From the NCBI GenBank assembly GCA_963668115.1, contig OY764147.1, forward strand, positions 2,317,761 to 2,381,760: a stretch of DNA of 64,000 nucleotides. The letters run 5' to 3'. Shown one piece after another: positions 4,167-44,376 of this stretch. How positions within the stretch are numbered: the first letter of the stretch is position 1; each line of letters opens with the position of its first letter. Source of the DNA: Dehalococcoidia bacterium. Lineage in GTDB: Bacteria > Chloroflexota > Dehalococcoidia > Plut-88900. Under the pieces are notes generated by a model. It did no database searches. It was not told the origin of the DNA and saw only the letters and a program-made list of their open reading frames with translations. Made by a program: the position numbers and the translations under genes.

Positions 4167-5485
4167 CCGGAATCCTCCTCCTGCCTATAGGCCTGGTCCA
4201 GCAGCTCCACTACGTGGTAAGAGCGCGTCGTTTGTCCCTGCTTGCGCAGACCCATATCAAGCTGGAGCATGCACCCGGGGTTGGCCGTGGTCACGACGTC
4301 GGCTTCCGCCGCCGACACATCCCGCATCTTGCTGTCCAGCAACTGCGATGAAAGCTCCGGGTTGACGATGTTGTAGACCCCCGCCGCACCGCAGCACTTG
4401 TCCGAGTTGGGCATTTCGCAGAGCTCCACGCCAGGGATCGAGGTCAAGACCTGGCGCGGCGCCTCCCTGATCCTCTGGGCGTGTACCAGGTGACATGAGT
4501 CCTGGTACGTGACCCGCTTGCTGAACCCCGACTTGGGCGGCGCGAATGGTAGGTCGGCGAGGAATTCGTGAACATCTTTGACTTTGGCGACGAAAGTCTC
4601 TGCTTTGCCTGAGTAACCGGGGTCCTCCGCAAGCAGCTCTTCGTACTCCTTCAGCATTGCCCCACACCCTGCGGCGTTGACGACCACTGTGTCGGCTTCC
4701 GCAAAAGCGTCGATATTCTTACGGGCCATCTCTCGGGCCGAGTCTCGCTCGCCGCTATGCACGTTCAGCGCACCGCAGCAACCCTGCCCACCCGGGATGT
4801 CCACCCGACAGCCGTTCTTGGACAGCACGTTTACCGTCGCCCGGTTCACGGGCCCAAACACTAGGGGCATGATGCACCCGGAAAAAAGGGCCACCGTCTT
4901 CTTTTCAGCCCCCTTTGCCGGTACGCTCTTCGCCTTGCCCCGGGGGTAGGGGCTGAAGGCCAGCTTGGGAAGCATCGACTCCATGTGGGACAGGCGAGTC
5001 GGGAGCAGCTTCAGCACGCGGGACTTCCTCACAAGCCACTGAATACCCGAGGCCTGGTAAAGGGAAAGCATACGGGAAGCCAGACCTAACCTGCCCTGGT
5101 GAGGGAACAGGTGCCTGAAGGCAATGTTCCTGGCCGTCCTTTCGATGAAGGGCCGAGAGGTCTGCGCCTCGATTCTGGCTCGGGTCTCCGTCATCAGGCT
5201 CCCGAAGGGCACCCCCGAGGGACAAGCGGCCTCGCAGGCCCGACATAGCAGGCAAAGCTCCATGTGCTCGACCAGCCGGTCCGTGTACCCGAACCGGCCC
5301 TCCGCTACGGCCTTCATCAGGGCCAGCCGGCCCCGGGGGGACTCGGTCTCCAGGCCCAGCTCCAGGTAGGTCGGGCACTGGTTGAGGCACAGGCCGCAGT
5401 GGACACAGCGGTAGAGTTCCTCCGCCGTGACGCCACCCACCGAAAGGTCCAGCAGGTCCATCACTGACTTTTCAGCTCTCACCAC
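4163..5485 (-). CDS. glcF: glycolate oxidase iron-sulfur subunit GlcF-like (Fe-S oxidoreductase with CCG domains)
   Basis: Two ferredoxin-type motifs (CVHCGLCLNQCP; CLLCRACEAACP) and two cysteine-rich CCG-type repeats (CCGAL..., CCGAAGVYN). Confidence 0.75.
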   Translation of the reverse strand: MVRAEKSVMDLLDLSVGGVTAEELYRCVHCGLCLNQCPTYLELGLETESPRGRLALMKAVAEGRFGYTDRLVEHMELCLLCRACEAACPSGVPFGSLMTETRARIEAQTSRPFIERTARNIAFRHLFPHQGRLGLASRMLSLYQASGIQWLVRKSRVLKLLPTRLSHMESMLPKLAFSPYPRGKAKSVPAKGAEKKTVALFSGCIMPLVFGPVNRATVNVLSKNGCRVDIPGGQGCCGALNVHSGERDSAREMARKNIDAFAEADTVVVNAAGCGAMLKEYEELLAEDPGYSGKAETFVAKVKDVHEFLADLPFAPPKSGFSKRVTYQDSCHLVHAQRIREAPRQVLTSIPGVELCEMPNSDKCCGAAGVYNIVNPELSSQLLDSKMRDVSAAEADVVTTANPGCMLQLDMGLRKQGQTTRSYHVVELLDQAYRQEEDSG

Positions 5486-5489
5486 TGCC

Positions 5490-6875
5490 CTATATCCCCT
5501 TCACGAACCGGCCCGGGTTCAGCGTGCCGTTGGGGTCAAACTGCTCTTTGATCCGTTTCATCAGGGCAACTTGGGGCCCATCGAATCCCCACACGTCGAT
5601 ACGTTCCTTCAATTCTGGGGGGCAGGCCTCGATGACGCAATGGCCGTTCATCTCTGTTGCCACATCTCTAATGGCCGTTACAAGGGCTTCTAATGTGTCA
5701 GTAGGGGTTTCCCTGTCCATCCAGTAGCCGTAGATGACCCCATTGACCATGTTACAGGAAACGCTAAGTCCTTCTCCGCCGACTTGTCGAATACGCTCCA
5801 CCAGGGACGCGGAGTCGGAAGGGAGGCAGGTGGCCTTGACGATCATAGTCGCCGGCGAGTTGGATCCCCGCCCCGCATCACATACCAATCGCCAAAAATT
5901 CTCACCGCTATATCCCCCCTCAATGGTATATCCAGATGCCCCTTTACGCAGAATCTGCCAGAACTTCTCCCCTTCATCCGTCGCCGGCAGACCCCTGTCG
6001 TTGCAAAGATCCGTCACAACTCGGGTCTGCCGTTCAACGGCCTCCCTGACGCCGCCTATCTTCAGCGCCACGGCGTAGCCTGTCCTGACTGCGAACCCTA
6101 CACCGCCAACCAGCTGAAGGGCCACGGGATCCACTCCCGCTCCGCGTAGGTCTTTAGCAATTTCTCCTGCCTCGGAAGCGGCGTCGCAACCAATCAGCAA
6201 ACTCCTTGTCTCCTTGAACAACGGAGCCAGCTTGAATGCCGCCTCAACAATTATCCCCAATGTTCCAAGCGCTCCTGTGTAGAGCTTGTTCATGTCATAG
6301 CCCGAGACGTTCTTGACGACCTTGCCCCCACCCTTGGTCACGTCACCGTTCGGATTCACGACTTTAACCCCGATAAGCCTGTCCCGAATCGCGCCGAACT
6401 GCGCCCGGATCGGCCCGCTGGAGTTGGCGGAGAGTATGCCCCCAATCGTCGCTTTCTCGGGAAGGGGAGGGTCCAGGGGCAGGAACTGTCCCTTTTCGCC
6501 AAGCTCTTCCTGCACGGCCCCGAGAGTAATCCCCGCTTCCACCACCACCGTCAGGTCCGAGGGTTCGTATTCGAGGACCCGGTTGAGCCTGGACGTGCCG
6601 ATCACAAGGTCGCAGGCTCTGGGCAGGTTTCCCAGGCCCATCGCAGTACCTCCGCCCCAGGGCACGACCCCCTTGCCATCCCGGTCCGCCGCCGAGAGCA
6701 CATGGCTCACCTCCTCGATTGTGTTTGGAAAGACTGCGGCCCCCGGCTCGACGCCATCGACTGCATACTGCCTGAGGCCCGGCCCGTGAGTGATCTTACG
6801 GTTGCGGGGTATCCGGTCGATCTCCCATTGCAGGGAGTGGGGAATGGCCATGACGATGCGGCTCGGTTGCGCCAA
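5490..6875 (-). CDS. glcE: FAD-binding oxidase, glycolate oxidase GlcE-like subunit
   Basis: PCMH-type FAD-binding domain (VPWGGGTAMGLGN). Located between glcD and glcF. Confidence 0.7.
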   Translation of the reverse strand: MAQPSRIVMAIPHSLQWEIDRIPRNRKITHGPGLRQYAVDGVEPGAAVFPNTIEEVSHVLSAADRDGKGVVPWGGGTAMGLGNLPRACDLVIGTSRLNRVLEYEPSDLTVVVEAGITLGAVQEELGEKGQFLPLDPPLPEKATIGGILSANSSGPIRAQFGAIRDRLIGVKVVNPNGDVTKGGGKVVKNVSGYDMNKLYTGALGTLGIIVEAAFKLAPLFKETRSLLIGCDAASEAGEIAKDLRGAGVDPVALQLVGGVGFAVRTGYAVALKIGGVREAVERQTRVVTDLCNDRGLPATDEGEKFWQILRKGASGYTIEGGYSGENFWRLVCDAGRGSNSPATMIVKATCLPSDSASLVERIRQVGGEGLSVSCNMVNGVIYGYWMDRETPTDTLEALVTAIRDVATEMNGHCVIEACPPELKERIDVWGFDGPQVALMKRIKEQFDPNGTLNPGRFVKGI

Positions 6876-13109: not shown

Positions 13110-13877
13110 ATGCTAGACCTATCTGATAGCCACACCCATCTCGAAGACTACGGAGACCAGCTCCCGGATGTCGTCCAGCGCGCCCGGGACGTCGGTGTCA
13201 GGCGCATCATCACCGCAGGCAGCTCCCTCGAATCTTCCAGGGCCGCCGTCCGCATCGCCGACGAGTACCCCGACATCTACGCGGGCGTCGGCATCCACCC
13301 CCACGCCGCCCACCTCAACATCACCGAGGAAACCTTCGAGGAGCTTGCCGGTCTGGCTCAGTCCAGCGAGAAGGTCCTGATGATCTGTGAACCGGGCCTC
13401 GACTACTTCAAAAGCAAGGCCCCGCGAGAGCTCCAGCAGGACGTCTTCCGCCGACACCTCTGCCTTGCCCGGGAGCTGCAACTGCCCGTGGTATTCCACA
13501 GTAGAGAGGCCTACTGGGACTGCCTGCGCATCCTCAAGGAGGAACGAGTCTACGAGGTCGGGGCCATCATGCACTACTTCGTCGCCGACCAGCGTATCGC
13601 CGAGGAGTGCATCGACATGGGAATCTACGTCTCCTTCTCCAAGACCCTGCTCGCCCTCCCCCACCTCCACCCGATAGCCGCGTCCCTGCCCATGGAGTAC
13701 ATGGTCATAGAGACCGATTCCTTCCCCCAGCCCTGGAAAAAGAAGAACCCCCTGGAACCCGCCCAGCTAATCCGCGTCGCTGAAAAAGTCGCGGAGCTAC
13801 GCGGCATCACCGTCGAGGAAGTCGCCGCTCAGACCACGGCCAACCTGAAGTACGTGTTGGGGCCTAAGCTACTATAG
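13110..13877 (+). CDS. tatD: TatD family metal-dependent hydrolase/DNase
   Basis: N-terminal SDSHTHLED; GIHPH; full-length TatD architecture. Confidence 0.85.
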   Translation: MLDLSDSHTHLEDYGDQLPDVVQRARDVGVRRIITAGSSLESSRAAVRIADEYPDIYAGVGIHPHAAHLNITEETFEELAGLAQSSEKVLMICEPGLDYFKSKAPRELQQDVFRRHLCLARELQLPVVFHSREAYWDCLRILKEERVYEVGAIMHYFVADQRIAEECIDMGIYVSFSKTLLALPHLHPIAASLPMEYMVIETDSFPQPWKKKNPLEPAQLIRVAEKVAELRGITVEEVAAQTTANLKYVLGPKLL

Positions 13878-14721
13878 GGGTGTCGTCCCGGTTGGCCCAC
13901 TCACCCATCGAGCCGTCGTAGTTGCTGACGTTTTCGTATCCCAGGAGCCTGAGGGCAAACATCACGTGTGCCGCGCGAATTCCGCCCTGTCAGTAGGTGA
14001 CTACCTTCTTCTCCGGCGTGATCCCCGCCGACGCATAGAGCTCCCTTAGCTCGTCGGGCGGCAGGAAGGTCCTGAACTCGTCGTCGGTGACCGCTTTCGT
14101 CCACTCGATGTGCACGGTGTCCGGCAGGTGCCCGCCCCGCTTGTTCCCCCGGGTCTGCACCCCCGTGTACTCGTCGTCCGTCCGAACGTCCAGCGTGACC
14201 CATCCCGGCTCGTTCAGCCGCTCCTTCAGTTGGTCGAGGGTGCAGTTGTATTCCGGGTGCATGGTCGGGGTGAAGGTGGCTGGCGGGTACGGCGACATCG
14301 GCCTGCCGCTGTGGTACGTCGCCAGGGGTGCAGGCTCCACCGCCCGACCCTCCGCTATCCACTTGTTCCACCCGCCGTTGAGCACCCGAACCTTCTCATG
14401 GCCGTGCATCCGCAGGAGCCACCACAGCCGACCCGCGTACAGCCCGCCCCAGTCGTCGTAGGCTATTACGTCGTGCTGGTCGCCGATGCCTACCTGCCCC
14501 ATCTCCTCGGCGAACTGGTCGGGGCCCATGACCAGCGCCCGGTTGTCGGGGTCCTTGAAGTAGTTGCGGTTCAGTCCCATCGCCCCCGGAATATGCCCCC
14601 TCTTGTACCCGTCGATGGGCCCCATATCCACGATCCTCAGGTTGGGGTCATCTAGGTGCTCTGCCAGCCATTCCGTCTCGACGATGAGGTCCGGTCTGTT
14701 GTGAGTGTTTTGGTTAGCCAT
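13864..14721 (-). CDS. two-domain rhodanese / 3-mercaptopyruvate-type sulfurtransferase. Candidate selenoprotein: the in-frame TGA at + coordinates 13990-13992 coincides with the catalytic Cys position (…EKKVVTY-U-QGGIRAAHVMFALRLLGYENVSNYDGSMGEWANRDDTPIVA).
   Basis: The annotated ORF 13990-14721 stops at TGA immediately before the conserved active-site loop. Reading through in the same frame gives the canonical rhodanese C-terminus (CxGGxRA...LGY.NV.NYDGS..EW) and ends at TAG 13864-13866. An SD (AGGAGAGGAG) precedes the ATG at 14721. Confidence 0.65.
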
Positions 14722-14740
14722 ATCTTGTCCTGCTCCTCTC

Positions 14741-15097
14741 CTAACTCCCCACCGCCCCCTCCAACGCCTCCACGTTGTACCCCAACACCGGCGCCGACCC
14801 CCCGACCACTATCGGTCTCTTCAGTAGCGCCGGCTCCTGCGTCATCAGGTCCAGCTTTTCATCGTCGGAAAGGGCGTCGACATCCAAACCCAGCTTCTTC
14901 ACCGCCCGACTCTTCCGTGAGAATAGCTGCTCCATGGGTATGATCTCCAGCAGACCCTCGATCTCTTCACGGGACAGGGGCTCCTTGAATATATCCCGCT
15001 CTATGTGGTCGATTTCTTTCTGCGAAAGAAACTCCTTCGCCCTTCTGCAGGAAGTTCAGGAGCGTTTCGTGTACAGCGTTATCCCGGTTGCAGCCAT
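14741..15097 (-). CDS. Spx/ArsC-family thiol-redox protein. Candidate selenoprotein (UxxC): the in-frame TGA at + coordinates 15056-15058 replaces the first Cys of the CxxC motif (MAATGITLYTKRS-U-TSCRRAKEFL...).
   Basis: Strong RBS CGAGGAGGAAATC precedes the ATG at 15097. The translation aligns along its whole length with Bacillus Spx (VTLYTSPSCTSCRKA...ERNIFSEPLS...LLRRPII...VGYNEDE), with the TGA at the Cys10 position. The downstream ORF 14741-14935 is the C-terminal remainder in the same frame. Confidence 0.65.
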
Positions 15098-15270
15098 GAT
15101 TTCCTCCTCGCGATTGCGGTAAAGCTTATGGGGCCATTCTACGCGCCGACCCCCTCCCAGTCCACTGTATGTACTGGGATTTGTTTGATTTGATGATGGG
15201 TTTTGACTTTGCAAGGGTGATGTTCATGTCTGATTCGCGATGGGAAGGTGGGATATGATAGGAATGGGCG

Positions 15271-15690
15271 ATGATCAATAGGTACTACAAATATTCGGAG
15301 TTGACCGGAAGGGTTATCGGGTGCGCGATGACGGTGCACTCGGCCTTGGGCAACGGCTTCCAGGAGGTGATCTACCAGCGGGCATTGGAGATCGAGATGG
15401 CCGACCAAGGGCTTTCCTTCAGCCGGGAACATGAAATGCCTATCTACTACAAAGAGCAGCAGATCGGTGCCAGAAGAGTGGATTTTCTGGTCGATGGCCT
15501 GGTCTCCGTTGAGCTGAAGGCTGTCATAAACCTCGAAGATGTTCACCTTGCGCAGGCCATCAACTACTTGGAGGCCTATGACCTTGAGGTAGGACTGCTA
15601 ATCAACTTCGGTGCCAGAAGCCTCCAATTCAAAAGGGTCGCTAACGGCAAATTCAAACAGAAGAACCAGGTAAACCCGGCAATCCCATAA
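15271..15690 (+). CDS. GxxExxY family protein (PD-(D/E)xK-like)
   Basis: Motif GNGFQEVIY (G-x-x-E-x-x-Y) and overall length match the GxxExxY family. Confidence 0.65.
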   Translation: MINRYYKYSELTGRVIGCAMTVHSALGNGFQEVIYQRALEIEMADQGLSFSREHEMPIYYKEQQIGARRVDFLVDGLVSVELKAVINLEDVHLAQAINYLEAYDLEVGLLINFGARSLQFKRVANGKFKQKNQVNPAIP

Positions 15691-19230: not shown

Positions 19231-19862
19231 CGGCCCACCCTACCCCCGCCCCCCACACCCGTCAACCAATCCCCAAAAACCCGCCCCCAAAAACCCTTGC
19301 TTTCTATTATATTCGTGCTAAACTGTCTGCGGTTCGAACTACTATTCATAATCAAAGGAGGTACACCAACACCCAGGGAAGCCCACCCGACCCCACACGG
19401 GTTCCGTGCCCCTTCCCTAACCCCCAGGCGATGGAAGGTCCATCGACTCTATGCGGCATCAGGCCTCTATATCGACGCCCTTGCCGATACGACGCCCCTC
19501 ACCCGGGCGTATACGCCTCGCCGACTTAACCCCCGCCGAGGAATTCCGCGAGTCTTTCACTCGTTATGCAGGGCCTTAGCGCCCTTATGCGGCTCCACCC
19601 GCCCACGGCGGCTTCGAGCCGATATGCCGTCCCGTTCAGCGGTCGAGCGCTGATGCGGAGGACGGATGTCCCCACGCAGAGACGCCCTCGACACCGGCAA
19701 GTCTCCCAAGGCATGCGTGAAGGGAAAGGCAGGACAACCGCCGATGCTGCCAGCGTCGGCGTAGGTGCCATCGAGATCCTGCATCCGAGTCCCGGACCTC
19801 CATCGCCTACCCAAACCCCACAACCAAACAACCTCTCCCCCACCCTCATCCCCTCCCCTCTC

Positions 19863-20086
19863 CGTAGGGGCGACCGGCTGGGCGCCCTCCCCGGTGTGGG
19901 GTGGGGGGTTCCTTCCCCGTTCCTTAAACAATCAAAGCCGTGCCTGAAATTGCAAAACAATCAAAAACCCACCCCTCGCGCCACGCGAATTCCCCAGAAA
20001 TCCCTTTCAGGCGTCATTCAATCAAAACAGCTACGAGTTCAATCAATCTTCAATCAACGTTCAATCAATGTTCAATCAAAACCCCA
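19863..20086. repeat. left arm of a long imperfect inverted repeat (core about 225 bp at about 90% identity with 25436-25642; weaker similarity extends to about 19700). Contains 5 tandem TTCAATCAA motifs.
   Basis: The reverse complement of 25436-25642 aligns base by base (…ggtgtggggtggggggttccttccccgttccttaaacaatcaaagccgtgcctgaaat…ttcaatcaa…). The shadow ORFs here are shared with those of the right arm. Confidence 0.85.
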
Positions 20087-25435: not shown

Positions 25436-25642
25436 AGGGGGTTTTGATTGAACATTGATTGAACTCGTAGCTGTTTTGATTGAACGACGCCTGAAAGGGA
25501 TTTCCGGGGAATTCGCGTGGTGCAGGGGTGTGGGTTTTTGATTGTTTTGCGATTTCAGGCACGGCTTTGATTGTTTAAGGAACGGGGAAGGAACCCCCCA
25601 CCCCACACCGGGGAGGGCGCCCACGAGGGACGCCCCTACGGG
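25436..25642. repeat. right arm of the long inverted repeat (partner of 19863-20086); contains 3 TTCAATCAA motifs (reverse complement). Weaker similarity extends to about 25830.
   Basis: Direct base-by-base match to the reverse complement of the left arm. Confidence 0.85.
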
Positions 25643-26338
25643 GGAGGAAGAGAGAGGGGCCGGGTTGTTGGGTTGGGGGGTTTGGGTTTGCATTTTGTCT
25701 GTCGGGTTTTGGGTTGGCGATGGAAGACGCTTCCGGGACGCTGCCCCGTTCCTGTGCTTCGGGTTATTCGACGCCCCGGGGCAGGGGCGCCGGCCCGCTT
25801 TTGCCGCTGTGCGGCCTCTGGCCCTAAATACGCTGGACTTGGGCAAGGACCGTAAGGGCCAGCAGGTCCGAGCCATACTCCCTGGGGGGTTGGCTGCACC
25901 GCAGAAGGGCGGTATGGAGGCTCTTCCAGCGTCCGATGCAGAGCCTCTCGCAGGCGTAAAGGTTTCCAAGTTTGCCGGTGCGACCCGGGAGTGCGGGGGA
26001 CCACCGGCACCCGGCCTGATTGAGCGGTCGGGTTACCGAGAAGTCCTCGGCGCCGGGTCTATCCGACCGCACTTCCGCTGCAAAGAGCGGCTTCCTCCCG
26101 AGGGAGGCTTCCCCTGAAAGAGGCCGAGAGGGCGTCTTAGAGGGGCTTCACAATGGAACGTAGCGTCCAGGGCGTCTATCCATCGCCTGGGGGTCAGGGA
26201 AGGGGCACGGGACCCGTGTGGGGTCGGGTGGGCTTCCCTGGGTTTTTGGTGTTCCTCCTTAGGTCAGTGAGAATATCTGGTCGACCGTAGGGTATGATAA
26301 CGCCTTTGCTCAGATGTGTCAAGCAAATGTACGGGTTG

Positions 26339-26387: not shown

Positions 26388-26440
26388 TGGGGGTGGGGCT
26401 AGGGAAGGGGGTGTAGTGCTAGGATGCAGGTGATTATTCA

Positions 26441-26510
26441 GGAGGGATGGATTACCACCTCCGTGGGAATGATCCGCCATAGGCGGACAGGCTCCCCTCG
26501 GGGGTGGGGA
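26441..26510. repeat. hairpin-repeat family copy: GGAGGGATGGATTaCCAC-CTCC-GTGGGAAT palindrome, plus CCGCCataGGCGG and CCCCtcGGGG hairpins
   Basis: Three consecutive short palindromes. The same unit recurs at 26564-26724 and 28258-28356. Confidence 0.6.
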
Positions 26511-26563
26511 GGGGGGACGGGGTTGGAGTGACGGAAGATGGGAAGGGTGGGTTGCGGGGTTGT

Positions 26564-26724
26564 GGGTGAGTGTTTCGGAGGGATGGATTCCCACCTCCGT
26601 GGGAATGACGGATTAAAGGGGCGGGAATGATCCGCCATAGGCGGACAGGCTACCCTCGAGGGTGGGGGCCGCCCTGCCCCGCCCCGCGGGATGGATTCCC
26701 GACTACTCGGGAATGACGGAGGGG
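26564..26724. repeat. hairpin-repeat family, compound copy (two GGATGGATTCC-N-GGAATGAC units, with stems CCCAC/GTGGG and CCCGA/TCGGG)
   Basis: The GGGTGAGTGTTTCGGAGGGATGGATTCCCACCTCCGTGGGAATGACGGA core matches 28258-28304 except for compensatory stem changes. Confidence 0.6.
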
Positions 26725-28233: not shown

Positions 28234-28257
28234 GGGGAGAGGTGAGTTGTGGGGATG

Positions 28258-28356
28258 GGGGTGAGTGTTTCGGAAGGATGGATTCCTGCCTCCGCAGGAA
28301 TGACGGAGTGGTCGGGGGTGGGGCGCTGGAGATTCCTCGCGGGGCATCGGAACGGG
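28258..28356. repeat. hairpin-repeat family copy immediately downstream of the lipoprotein gene (stem variant CCTGC/GCAGG)
   Basis: GGTGAGTGTTTCGGAAGGATGGATTCCTGCCTCCGCAGGAATGACGGAG. Both stem arms changed together relative to the 26580 copy. Confidence 0.6.
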
Positions 28357-39092: not shown

Positions 39093-40490
39093 TCATAGTA
39101 CCACCAGCACGACTCCCACCACCGTTGCCCCTATCCCGGCCAGTGTCTTCCAGCTTAACCTCTCTCGCAATACAAATGCCGACATCAGGGCTATCCAGAC
39201 CAGCTGGGTGCTCATGAGGACCTGGGTCACGGCAAGCCCGACTTTTTGCAGAGCCACGAGCATCAGGAAGCTGGCCAGCCCCATGGAAAGCGCTCCACTG
39301 ACCACTGGGAACAGAACGGGGAGGAAACTCCTGCGCCCCATCTTCATCACCCTGACTCTTCCAGTCCCGATGAGCGGACCCCCACCCCCGAGGGGTGGCC
39401 CTAACCCGACGCGCACCTTTTCATCGGGAGGATGCAGCGCGATTTCGACCCGCTGGGTCCTGGCCCAGTGACCCGTCCATCGTGCCGACGCCACCTCCGG
39501 CATGGCGGTGAGGGTGGCCTCCGGGGCGTACACGCCGGGCAGGTCTATCCGGAAACGGAGCCCTCCCCTCCCCCTTCCCTTCTCAACCTGCACGAGATCG
39601 CCGCCCAGTGCCCGGATACCTTCGCCAAGCCTGTCCAACTGCTCCCAGTAGACCGGCGGCCGGATGCGCGCCGGTATGTGCCGCACCGACGGCTGACGCG
39701 GCGCCCGGGGCTTGGCCCAGTAGGGAATATGCAGCATCCTGGGCCTGTAGAAAAGGTGAGCCAGAGGTCCCGGGCCATGCAACCGCGATGTTCTTCTCTG
39801 ACGCCGGGCAAGGCTCTTGGGCGAGGGGGTGGGGGCGCGGGTGTCGCTGCCGAGCAAAAAGTCCATGTTGGTTGTCGCCATCATCGAAAGGACCAGAACC
39901 ACCGGGACCAGTCTGACGGCGTTTACCAGGACTGCTCCCGCTTCATCCACCGCGAACTTCTGCAGGAGTGTTCCACCCGTCCAGGTCGCCACAATAAACA
40001 GCAGGACCAGCATTCCCTTCAGTCCCAGCCATTTGGCCTGGGATGCCTCCACCTGCCTCCTCTGTGAGAAGGTCAGCACGTACATCCCGACGACTATAGC
40101 CGCTATACCAACCAATCTGAGGGGGGAGGAGTCCTCCTTGAGGAGTACGAGCCCGATGAACACTGCGAGCAATGCCTGCAGGCCGCTCATGATTGGCGAG
40201 GCCTTACTGACGTCCACGGAGGTCAGAAACCGGAAGTAGAGGGGCATCCCGATGCACAGTGCAAGCACCGACCCTGCAGCGCTCAGCGCGAGGTAGGCCG
40301 TCGGGGTGTTTGGAAGCTTGGAAGCCTCGCCGGTGATGAACGTCAGCACTAGGGCAAACAGCGCGCCGCCCGTCACCCCCAGCGCCGACATGGGCAGGGG
40401 AAGGAACCTGCGCGTCATTAGCTTGTCGATAACCGCCGTTACGGCAAAGATGAAGGCGGCCAGCAGCATCGCCAGCTCTCCGACAGGCAT
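39093..40490 (-). CDS. DMT-superfamily (EamA-like) transporter with an Arg/Pro-rich cytoplasmic insertion of about 170 aa between TM7 and TM8
   Basis: 7 N-terminal and 3 C-terminal hydrophobic helices. The central region is hydrophilic and low-complexity, and a long shadow ORF lies on the opposite strand. Confidence 0.55.
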   Translation of the reverse strand: MPVGELAMLLAAFIFAVTAVIDKLMTRRFLPLPMSALGVTGGALFALVLTFITGEASKLPNTPTAYLALSAAGSVLALCIGMPLYFRFLTSVDVSKASPIMSGLQALLAVFIGLVLLKEDSSPLRLVGIAAIVVGMYVLTFSQRRQVEASQAKWLGLKGMLVLLFIVATWTGGTLLQKFAVDEAGAVLVNAVRLVPVVLVLSMMATTNMDFLLGSDTRAPTPSPKSLARRQRRTSRLHGPGPLAHLFYRPRMLHIPYWAKPRAPRQPSVRHIPARIRPPVYWEQLDRLGEGIRALGGDLVQVEKGRGRGGLRFRIDLPGVYAPEATLTAMPEVASARWTGHWARTQRVEIALHPPDEKVRVGLGPPLGGGGPLIGTGRVRVMKMGRRSFLPVLFPVVSGALSMGLASFLMLVALQKVGLAVTQVLMSTQLVWIALMSAFVLRERLSWKTLAGIGATVVGVVLVVL

Positions 40491-40952: not shown

Positions 40953-44090
<3,138 letters not shown>

Positions 44091-44138
44091 TGCATTAAGA
44101 CACGCACAGAACGTTCAACTTCTCTATTCGGCACATGG

Positions 44139-44301
44139 CGCGGGGTGGAGCAGTGGTCCGCCACGGGCGGATCGGGCTGGAGCAGTGGTCCGCCGAGGGC
44201 GGATCGGTCTCGTAACCCGCCGCACCCGCGGATCGCAGACATCGCGGGGTGGAGCAGTGGTCCGCCGAGGGCGGATCGGGCTCATAACCCGCCGCAGACA
44301 T
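44139..44301 (+). repeat. three degenerate tandem partial copies of the 5' half of the initiator tRNA-Met (each begins CGCGGGGTGGAGCAGTGG then TCCGCC(G/A)(A/C)GGGCGGATCGG; the third retains the CTCATAA anticodon loop)
   Basis: 18-nt identity to the tRNA 5' end at 44139, about 44183 (partial) and 44243. Each copy carries an inserted palindrome TCCGCCgagGGCGGA. Confidence 0.7.
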
Positions 44302-44376
44302 CGCGGGGTGGAGCAGTGGCAGCTCGTCGGGCTCATAACCCGAAGGTCGTTGGTTCGAATCCAACCCCCGCTACCA
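44302..44376 (+). tRNA. initiator tRNA-Met (CAU anticodon)
   Basis: CGCGGGGTGGAGCAG…TCGGGCTCATAACCCGAAGG…GGTTCGAATCCAACCCCCGCTACCA. Matches the E. coli tRNA-fMet layout, including the three G:C pairs in the anticodon stem and an encoded CCA. Confidence 0.85.

Follow-up and report, generated by a model that had tools for sequence, protein, structure and literature searches.

Neighboring Spx/ArsC-like and rhodanese genes with in-frame UGA codons in a Dehalococcoidia genome: evidence for two selenoproteins of catalogued kinds in one apparent transcription unit

We analyzed a window of 64,000 nt from a Dehalococcoidia bacterium (Chloroflexota; GenBank assembly GCA_963668115.1, contig OY764147.1, positions 2,317,761 to 2,381,760; coordinates below are those of the window), in which two neighboring minus-strand genes, one for a small thioredoxin-fold protein of the Spx/ArsC family and one for a two-domain rhodanese, each contain an in-frame TGA at the position of the catalytic cysteine. 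In all likelihood, the locus is a bicistronic unit that encodes two genuine selenoproteins, both belonging to kinds that have already been catalogued. Its elements are:

14741..15097, minus strand: Spx/ArsC-family thioredoxin-fold gene, 118 codons, with the UxxC motif U14-T-S-C17 (U, selenocysteine, Sec)
15056..15058, minus strand: in-frame TGA of the Spx-like gene, codon 14 (Sec14), aligned with Cys10 of B. subtilis Spx
15022..15040, minus strand: candidate selenocysteine insertion sequence (SECIS) of the Spx-like gene, 8-bp stem GCGAAGGA/UCUUUCGC with loop GUU, 15 nt after the UGA
13864..14721, minus strand: two-domain rhodanese gene (thiosulfate-sulfurtransferase type), 285 codons, active-site loop U-QGGIRA
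13990..13992, minus strand: in-frame TGA of the rhodanese gene, codon 244 (Sec244), at the catalytic Cys position
13951..13989, minus strand: rhodanese SECIS stem-loop, lower stem AGGGCGGA/UUUGCCCU plus an upper hairpin
14242..14244, minus strand: Cys160 codon of the rhodanese, a speculative candidate for a resolving Cys

A first-pass annotation of this DNA had described two adjacent co-oriented genes at 13864-15097, 19 bp apart and with strong ribosome-binding sites, and all of its coordinates were confirmed. The Spx-like gene starts with an ATG at 15097, 7 nt downstream of the Shine-Dalgarno sequence AGGAGG, and stops with TAG at 14743..14741; after 19 nt (14740..14722) the downstream rhodanese gene begins with an ATG at 14721 and stops at 13866..13864. 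The protein contexts of the two TGA codons are ...ITLYTKRS-U-TSCRRAKEFL... in the Spx-like protein, whose N-terminal part reads MAATGITLYTKRS, and ...EKKVVTY-U-QGGIRAAHVMF... in the rhodanese. That both codons occupy the catalytic Cys position, as the annotation had proposed, was borne out by searches against solved structures with an X in place of each TGA residue: in the Spx-like query, the X falls on Cys10 of the B. subtilis protein Spx (6GHB, SPSCTSCRKA), and in the rhodanese query on the catalytic Cys of T. thermophilus 1UAR and of M. tuberculosis CysA (3HWI/3AAX).

The conservation of the two codons far exceeds what chance would produce. A genomic scan for relatives of the rhodanese, with one genome per species, returned at least 572 matches, and in the best 80, which we examined, TGA occupies the catalytic codon without exception (80/80, at 44-92% identity), in organisms as diverse as Dehalococcoidia, other Chloroflexota, Binatia, Entotheonella, and Thermodesulfobacteriota. 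All 80 alignments continue through the TGA to the C-terminus (residues 283-285). In the rhodanese family alignment, codon 244 is TGA in 81/81 genes, and likewise in a second gene copy at locus L079 as well as at loci L086 and L087. The L079 copies are tandem Sec-rhodanese paralogues (4482-5306 and 5448-6245 of that locus), each with its TGA and a conserved SECIS core. For the Spx-like gene, TGA is found at the first position of the UxxC motif in 13/13 further loci (L001-L008, L081-L085) and also in L087; L086 and L087 both carry both conserved SECIS sequences. A metagenome scan with the Spx-like alignment returned two loci only. Homologues that lack the TGA have Cys at the same place: in protein searches, every rhodanese match of at least 58% identity was a gene call ending at ...TY, and among the full-length homologues, none of them above 54% identity, the aligned residue is Cys in 105 of 106 cases. 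Eighty-five of these 106 carry the loop CQGGIRAA, which is identical to the UQGGIRAA of the Sec forms apart from U/C.

Constraint on the codons beyond the UGA points in the same direction. Against its eight closest relatives, the rhodanese gene has a ratio of nonsynonymous to synonymous substitution rates (dN/dS) of 0.05-0.09 over its whole length; in the 41 codons past the UGA (245-285), dN is 0.011 and dS 0.5-0.8 (dN/dS about 0.02), and this region is therefore translated. The corresponding dN/dS of the Spx-like gene is about 0.04-0.06, and its codons 6-13 (ITLYTKRS), immediately before the UGA, showed synonymous variation only among nine sequences. No frameshift or additional stop was encountered in any relative examined, so that the decay in relatives that would have told against the two genes was not seen.

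Both UGA codons are followed by conserved hairpins, as the annotation had anticipated. For the Spx-like gene we aligned thirteen Sec forms, including the distant L082, L083, and L085 at 44-52% identity, and RNAalifold gave the consensus hairpin GCGAARGA-GUU-UCUUUCGC, in which 98.9% of the alignment cells can pair; slid controls reach 74% at most. Within this hairpin, two pairs show compensatory exchanges (CG<->UA and AU<->GC), both seen in L083 and L085. An alternative hairpin, GUUUCUUUC/GAAAGAAAU, which is the minimum-free-energy structure of the single sequence, was discarded, as it lacks compensatory changes and is disrupted in the distant homologues. In L081, a small hairpin directly 3' of the Spx UGA seemed to show a compensatory change, which failed in the aligned register. 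In the rhodanese family, the consensus comprises 11 nt after the UGA and then the hairpin UCCGUGC-GGC-GCACGGA, which sits on a lower stem that varies more. Here, 88.8% of the cells pair (slid controls, at most 57%), and one pair is compensatory, C-G in 51 sequences and A-U in 10. Synonymous codon entropy falls to about zero at codons 249-252 (CGT 80/81, GCG 81/81, GCG 80/81, CAC 81/81), compared with a gene-wide mean of 1.3 bits. The apical loops, GGC, GUU, or CGGCACA, all contain a G, as in SECIS elements, which are 3' hairpins with a G in the loop; they are putative SelB-binding sites. There is thus strong support for translation of both genes through the UGA, each UGA being followed in the mRNA by a hairpin with a G-led apical loop, which is the arrangement on which bacterial SelB-GTP-Sec-tRNASec relies for recoding UGA as selenocysteine.

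Several findings weigh against this conclusion or narrow its basis. The compensatory changes in the Spx-like hairpin probably reflect a single evolutionary event, L083 and L085 being related. Folding z-scores of the whole hairpins as single sequences are unremarkable (0 to -1.3), and searches with Rfam at gathering thresholds gave no match to a SECIS family. As to the decoding machinery, ARAGORN detected no tRNA-Sec in the window and in 60 of the related loci, and tblastn detected no selA, selB, or selD in the window and 80 loci when queried with the SelA, SelB, and SelD sequences of E. coli; in both searches the loci were represented by the gene flanks only. Finally, among 83 genes examined (the 82 aligned sequences, that is 81 genes and the second L079 copy, plus L086 and L087, less the overlap of L086), the window rhodanese is the sole gene with an altered SECIS core, which is otherwise invariant (CGUGCGGCGCACG).

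The last point deserves closer inspection. Four synonymous changes (ATA->ATT, CGT->CGC, GCG->GCA, GTA->GTG) separate the window variant AUUCGCGCGGCACACGUG from the canonical core AUACGUGCGGCGCACGUA. The variant retains three of the six canonical upper-stem pairs and can form a 5-bp stem in a shifted register (13978..13962), with CGGCACA as its 7-nt loop, so that G18 and G19 keep their distance from the UGA; the window rhodanese hairpin folds at -18.1 kcal/mol. Whereas the four altered sites have evolved at close to the neutral rate, only one amino acid differs over the 41 codons downstream; we infer that this lineage still reads through the UGA and that its variant hairpin remains functional. 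The register-shifted hairpin might then represent natural SECIS turnover, proceeding by synonymous substitutions that keep the GG of the loop, an idea we hold only jointly with the selenium relay considered below and regard, in that combination, as rather doubtful.

Two other explanations for the in-frame TGA codons have to be set against selenocysteine decoding. The genes could be decaying pseudogenes or could yield shortened products, namely a 243-aa rhodanese without the catalytic loop and a 64-104-aa ArsC fragment truncated at its N-terminus, and public gene calls indeed record exactly such products. This is hard to reconcile with the same TGA in 80/80 related loci, with the low dN/dS past the rhodanese TGA, with the purely synonymous variation in Spx codons 6-13 and the absence of frameshifts or extra stops in relatives, and with the conserved SECIS hairpins; we consider this explanation effectively refuted and its probability close to negligible. 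Alternatively, the UGA might be read without selenocysteine, through near-cognate insertion of Trp or Cys or as a reassigned codon, a scenario that gains some room from the fact that the search for the Sec machinery covered the window and flanks and found none there. However, TGA is the ordinary terminator of 12 of the 44 long open reading frames (ORFs) in the window, which is why we regard UGA as not reassigned in this genome. Moreover, each site falls exactly on a catalytic Cys and precedes a conserved hairpin at SECIS-like spacing, and relatives within the lineage are reported to be rich in selenoproteins: Dehalococcoidia metagenome-assembled genomes (MAGs) with 46-49 selenoprotein genes are among the ten richest bacteria in BSepDB (PMC13326102). 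SelA and SelB have also been described as enriched in sponge-symbiont bins (PMC5649159). Non-Sec read-through therefore appears very improbable. Selenocysteine decoding of both UGAs is thus strongly supported as far as sequence comparison reaches, and the annotation's preference for selenoprotein genes over pseudogenes was upheld by conserved TGA codons, purifying selection, and conserved hairpins. A read-through ORF scan of the window for further selenoprotein genes produced 135 mechanical candidates, none of them with a redox motif or convincing support.

The small protein matches the Pfam family ArsC (PF03960, 4.8e-19) and passes TIGR01617 (arsC_related, Spx/MgsR; 90.4 bits, cutoff 75.05), and it remains below the cutoffs of NF041106, the ArsC family (seleno)protein model (34.1 bits, cutoff 85), and of TIGR00014 for the glutaredoxin-dependent arsenate reductase ArsC (44.3 bits, cutoff 106). 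One could take it for a true Spx-type regulator, which would bind the C-terminal domain of the RNA polymerase alpha subunit (alpha-CTD), sense oxidative or persulfide stress through U-x-x-C, and activate its own operon among others, with the rhodanese as a regulon member rather than a redox partner. In favor of such a role, Spx proteins are the solved structures most similar to it (E about 1e-18), B. subtilis Spx (1Z3E, 6GHB) being the closest, with C10 in register with U14 and C13 with C17; it also passes TIGR01617 and retains both the CxxC position and the RPI motif. Apart from having Sec for Cys10, however, the protein scores far under the Spx-specific NCBIfam cutoffs (NF002459, 88.3/123; NF009885, 67.3/152; NF009210, 57.5/159). 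In B. subtilis Spx, Gly52 is needed for alpha-CTD binding and the C-terminal tail is a degradation tail. In the small protein, the Gly52-bearing loop (EDGTDE) falls in a 2-residue deletion, and the chain ends at residue 118 rather than at 131-132 as in Spx, without the C-terminal tail of about 14 residues. Spx biology is, furthermore, established in Firmicutes, not in Chloroflexota. A regulatory role thus seems decidedly unlikely, and we regard the product as a selenol/thiol redox protein with the ArsC/Spx fold rather than as an established transcription factor. By analogy with its family, the U14xxC17 selenol/thiol pair may act as a redox-active selenenylsulfide switch.

In the rhodanese, two stretches match PF00581 (130 bits, Pfam), corresponding to tandem rhodanese domains, and the catalytic residue lies in the six-residue loop of the C-terminal domain, U-QGGIR-A. 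The sequence aligns over its full length with 1UAR, 3HWI/3AAX, and A. vinelandii RhdA (1E0C) at E values of 1e-44 to 1e-35, and shares with these enzymes an inactive N-terminal and a catalytic C-terminal domain as well as the loop Arg at +5; it differs from them in having Sec as the catalytic residue and the loop QGGIRA instead of RIGERS or QTHHRS. The loop motif of 3-mercaptopyruvate sulfurtransferases is CG[ST]GVT. Because Gln occupies position +1 and Arg position +5 of the window loop, which lacks that motif, and because the cutoff of the 3-mercaptopyruvate sulfurtransferase model NF008557 is missed (128.8 bits, cutoff 250), the protein resembles thiosulfate sulfurtransferases (RhdA, CysA) more closely than 3-mercaptopyruvate sulfurtransferases. 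It also stays below the cutoff of NF041203 (rhodanese_LYCAU (seleno)protein; 37.9 bits, cutoff 115). According to what is known of the family, the Sec244 selenolate would take up sulfane sulfur as an Se-S(H) adduct and would then pass it to a thiol or cyanide-type acceptor. Residue 160 is Cys in 76/81 Sec forms and in 26/106 Cys forms, in which Ala prevails (68), counts that ignore phylogeny; a function of Cys160 as a resolving residue is speculative.

Regarding expression, the pair is flanked upstream by a divergent PD-(D/E)XK gene (15271-15690) and downstream by a convergent TatD gene (13110-13877), and one promoter-like site lies in front of it:

15136..15164, minus strand: candidate sigma-70-like promoter TGGACT-17-TAGAAT, from a consensus scan only, about 40 nt upstream of the Spx-like ATG

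The scan yielded two sites in the region where 0.7 would be expected. Given the divergent and convergent orientation of the flanking genes and the promoter-like site at 15164-15136, a two-gene transcription unit is plausible, and the anatomy as a whole, with the 19-nt gap and Shine-Dalgarno sequences at both genes, is consistent with a bicistron.

The annotation had further suggested a selenium-based persulfide or redox relay between the two products, and for this we found nothing beyond adjacency. The idea is chemically sensible: rhodaneses such as E. coli GlpE pass sulfur on to proteins with a thioredoxin fold, and the small Spx-like protein may serve the rhodanese as acceptor or reductant. 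A dedicated sulfane-sulfur relay would run from the Sec244 Se-S(H) adduct to the U14xxC17 protein as obligate acceptor or reductant, perhaps with Cys160 as resolving residue; combined with SECIS turnover in the window lineage, it is a reading that we think unlikely to hold. The Spx-rhodanese arrangement recurs in L001-L008, L081, L086, and L087, with Spx-like proteins 66-94% identical to that of the window. The pair occurs only within a narrow clade of Dehalococcoidia in which synteny extends over the entire neighborhood; these relatives also keep TatD downstream, and L086 and L087 the NucS-like gene as well.

Functional coupling is weakened by several observations. Since the entire neighborhood is syntenic in the paired relatives, conserved adjacency informs little beyond common descent. 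Outside this clade both genes occur unpaired: 72 of the 80 Sec-rhodanese loci have no ArsC-family neighbor, the Sec-Spx-like genes of L082, L083, and L085 stand beside unrelated genes, and the three Cys-form rhodanese neighborhoods inspected contained no ArsC gene. In L004 (4187-5979 of that locus), a two-gene same-strand insertion separates the Spx-like and rhodanese genes. Assuming about 50 selenoprotein genes per genome, a count taken over from the BSepDB MAGs, we estimate that roughly one adjacent selenoprotein pair would be expected by chance. Clustering of neighboring ORFs over the 80 Sec-rhodanese loci revealed no widespread partner, most large clusters consisting of spurious high-GC ORFs. 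The relay is therefore best described as possible but speculative, with comparative support ending at adjacency, and the adjacency itself as lineage-specific; it could equally well be inherited synteny in a selenoprotein-rich genome. The products of the L004 insertion are an AAA-ATPase-like protein of 394 aa and a second protein of 214 aa, and the insertion resembles a mobile or defense-type cassette.

For the comparison with catalogued selenoproteins, we take cd03032 to be the Spx subfamily of ArsC. Among its predicted selenoproteins, the Global Ocean Sampling (GOS) selenoproteome of 2008 already listed 'Arsenate reductase 2, cd03032, UxxC' with 42 sequences, 'Rhodanase-related sulfurtransferase, cd01449' with 8, and 'Sulfurtransferase COG2897' with 1 (PMC2398784). 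A 2026 review distinguishes rhodanese-like selenoprotein forms 1-5, forms 2 and 4 with the motif UxxG, as well as an ArsC-like UxxC family (PMC13188914). The window rhodanese has the PF00581 domain and the Sec at the catalytic Cys in U-x-x-G (UQGG) in common with the Sec-rhodaneses predicted from marine metagenomes, but it fits no dedicated NCBIfam model and belongs to a large family with an almost invariant SECIS core. The small protein, likewise, shares the ArsC/Spx fold and a UxxC at the N-terminal redox motif with the catalogued ArsC-like selenoproteins, yet it is not a member of the curated family NF041106 and passes TIGR01617 instead. Adjacent same-strand selenoprotein genes are known from grdAB, prdBC, frhA-frhD-hdrA, Prx + SelW-like, Prx-like + AhpD-like, SAO, and Tso, the last including a rhodanese-fusion selenoprotein. 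The combination of a rhodanese with an ArsC/Spx-like protein is absent from the list in the review, whose section on selenoprotein operons does not mention the pair (PMC13188914); to this extent the novelty claimed in the first-pass annotation stands, but with both families catalogued before as predicted selenoproteins (PMC2398784, PMC13188914) it was overstated. The locus thus extends known kinds by another member and another gene arrangement and does not found a new kind; only the side-by-side arrangement seems to be undescribed.

Elsewhere in the window, the region of the 23S rRNA gene (40954-44376) has a protein-coding ORF (39093-40490, minus strand) immediately upstream instead of a 16S gene; downstream of the 23S gene, Rfam detected no 5S, and the sequence there holds three direct repeats resembling tRNA fragments (44141-44296) as well as a tRNA-Met (44302-44376). 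The rRNA operon appears to be unlinked. Inverted repeats at 19368-20057 and 25444-26246 (up to 98% identity over 97 nt) enclose about 5.4 kb with two paralogous thiolase-like genes that have a direct repeat of 300 nt in common (90% identity; 20222 and 21845). Short families of 45-73-nt direct repeats lie at 26404-26667 and 28235-28307.

None of these findings overturns current understanding. They do bear on annotation, as public collections contain both window genes only in truncated form (243 and 64 aa; entries P0024 and P0075), the 90%-identity cluster that holds the truncated rhodanese having 177 members, and they indicate that the Sec-rhodanese family is large, the best 80 of at least 572 genomic matches all being Sec forms. 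The relay, if true, would be a two-selenoprotein pathway not yet described. Within Dehalococcoidia, Sec and Cys forms with the otherwise identical loop (U/C)QGGIRAA coexist and offer a natural pair for studying the role of Sec in persulfide chemistry. A SECIS core that is nearly invariant across phyla, together with the single window variant, could be used to test SelB-SECIS recognition outside the model organisms.

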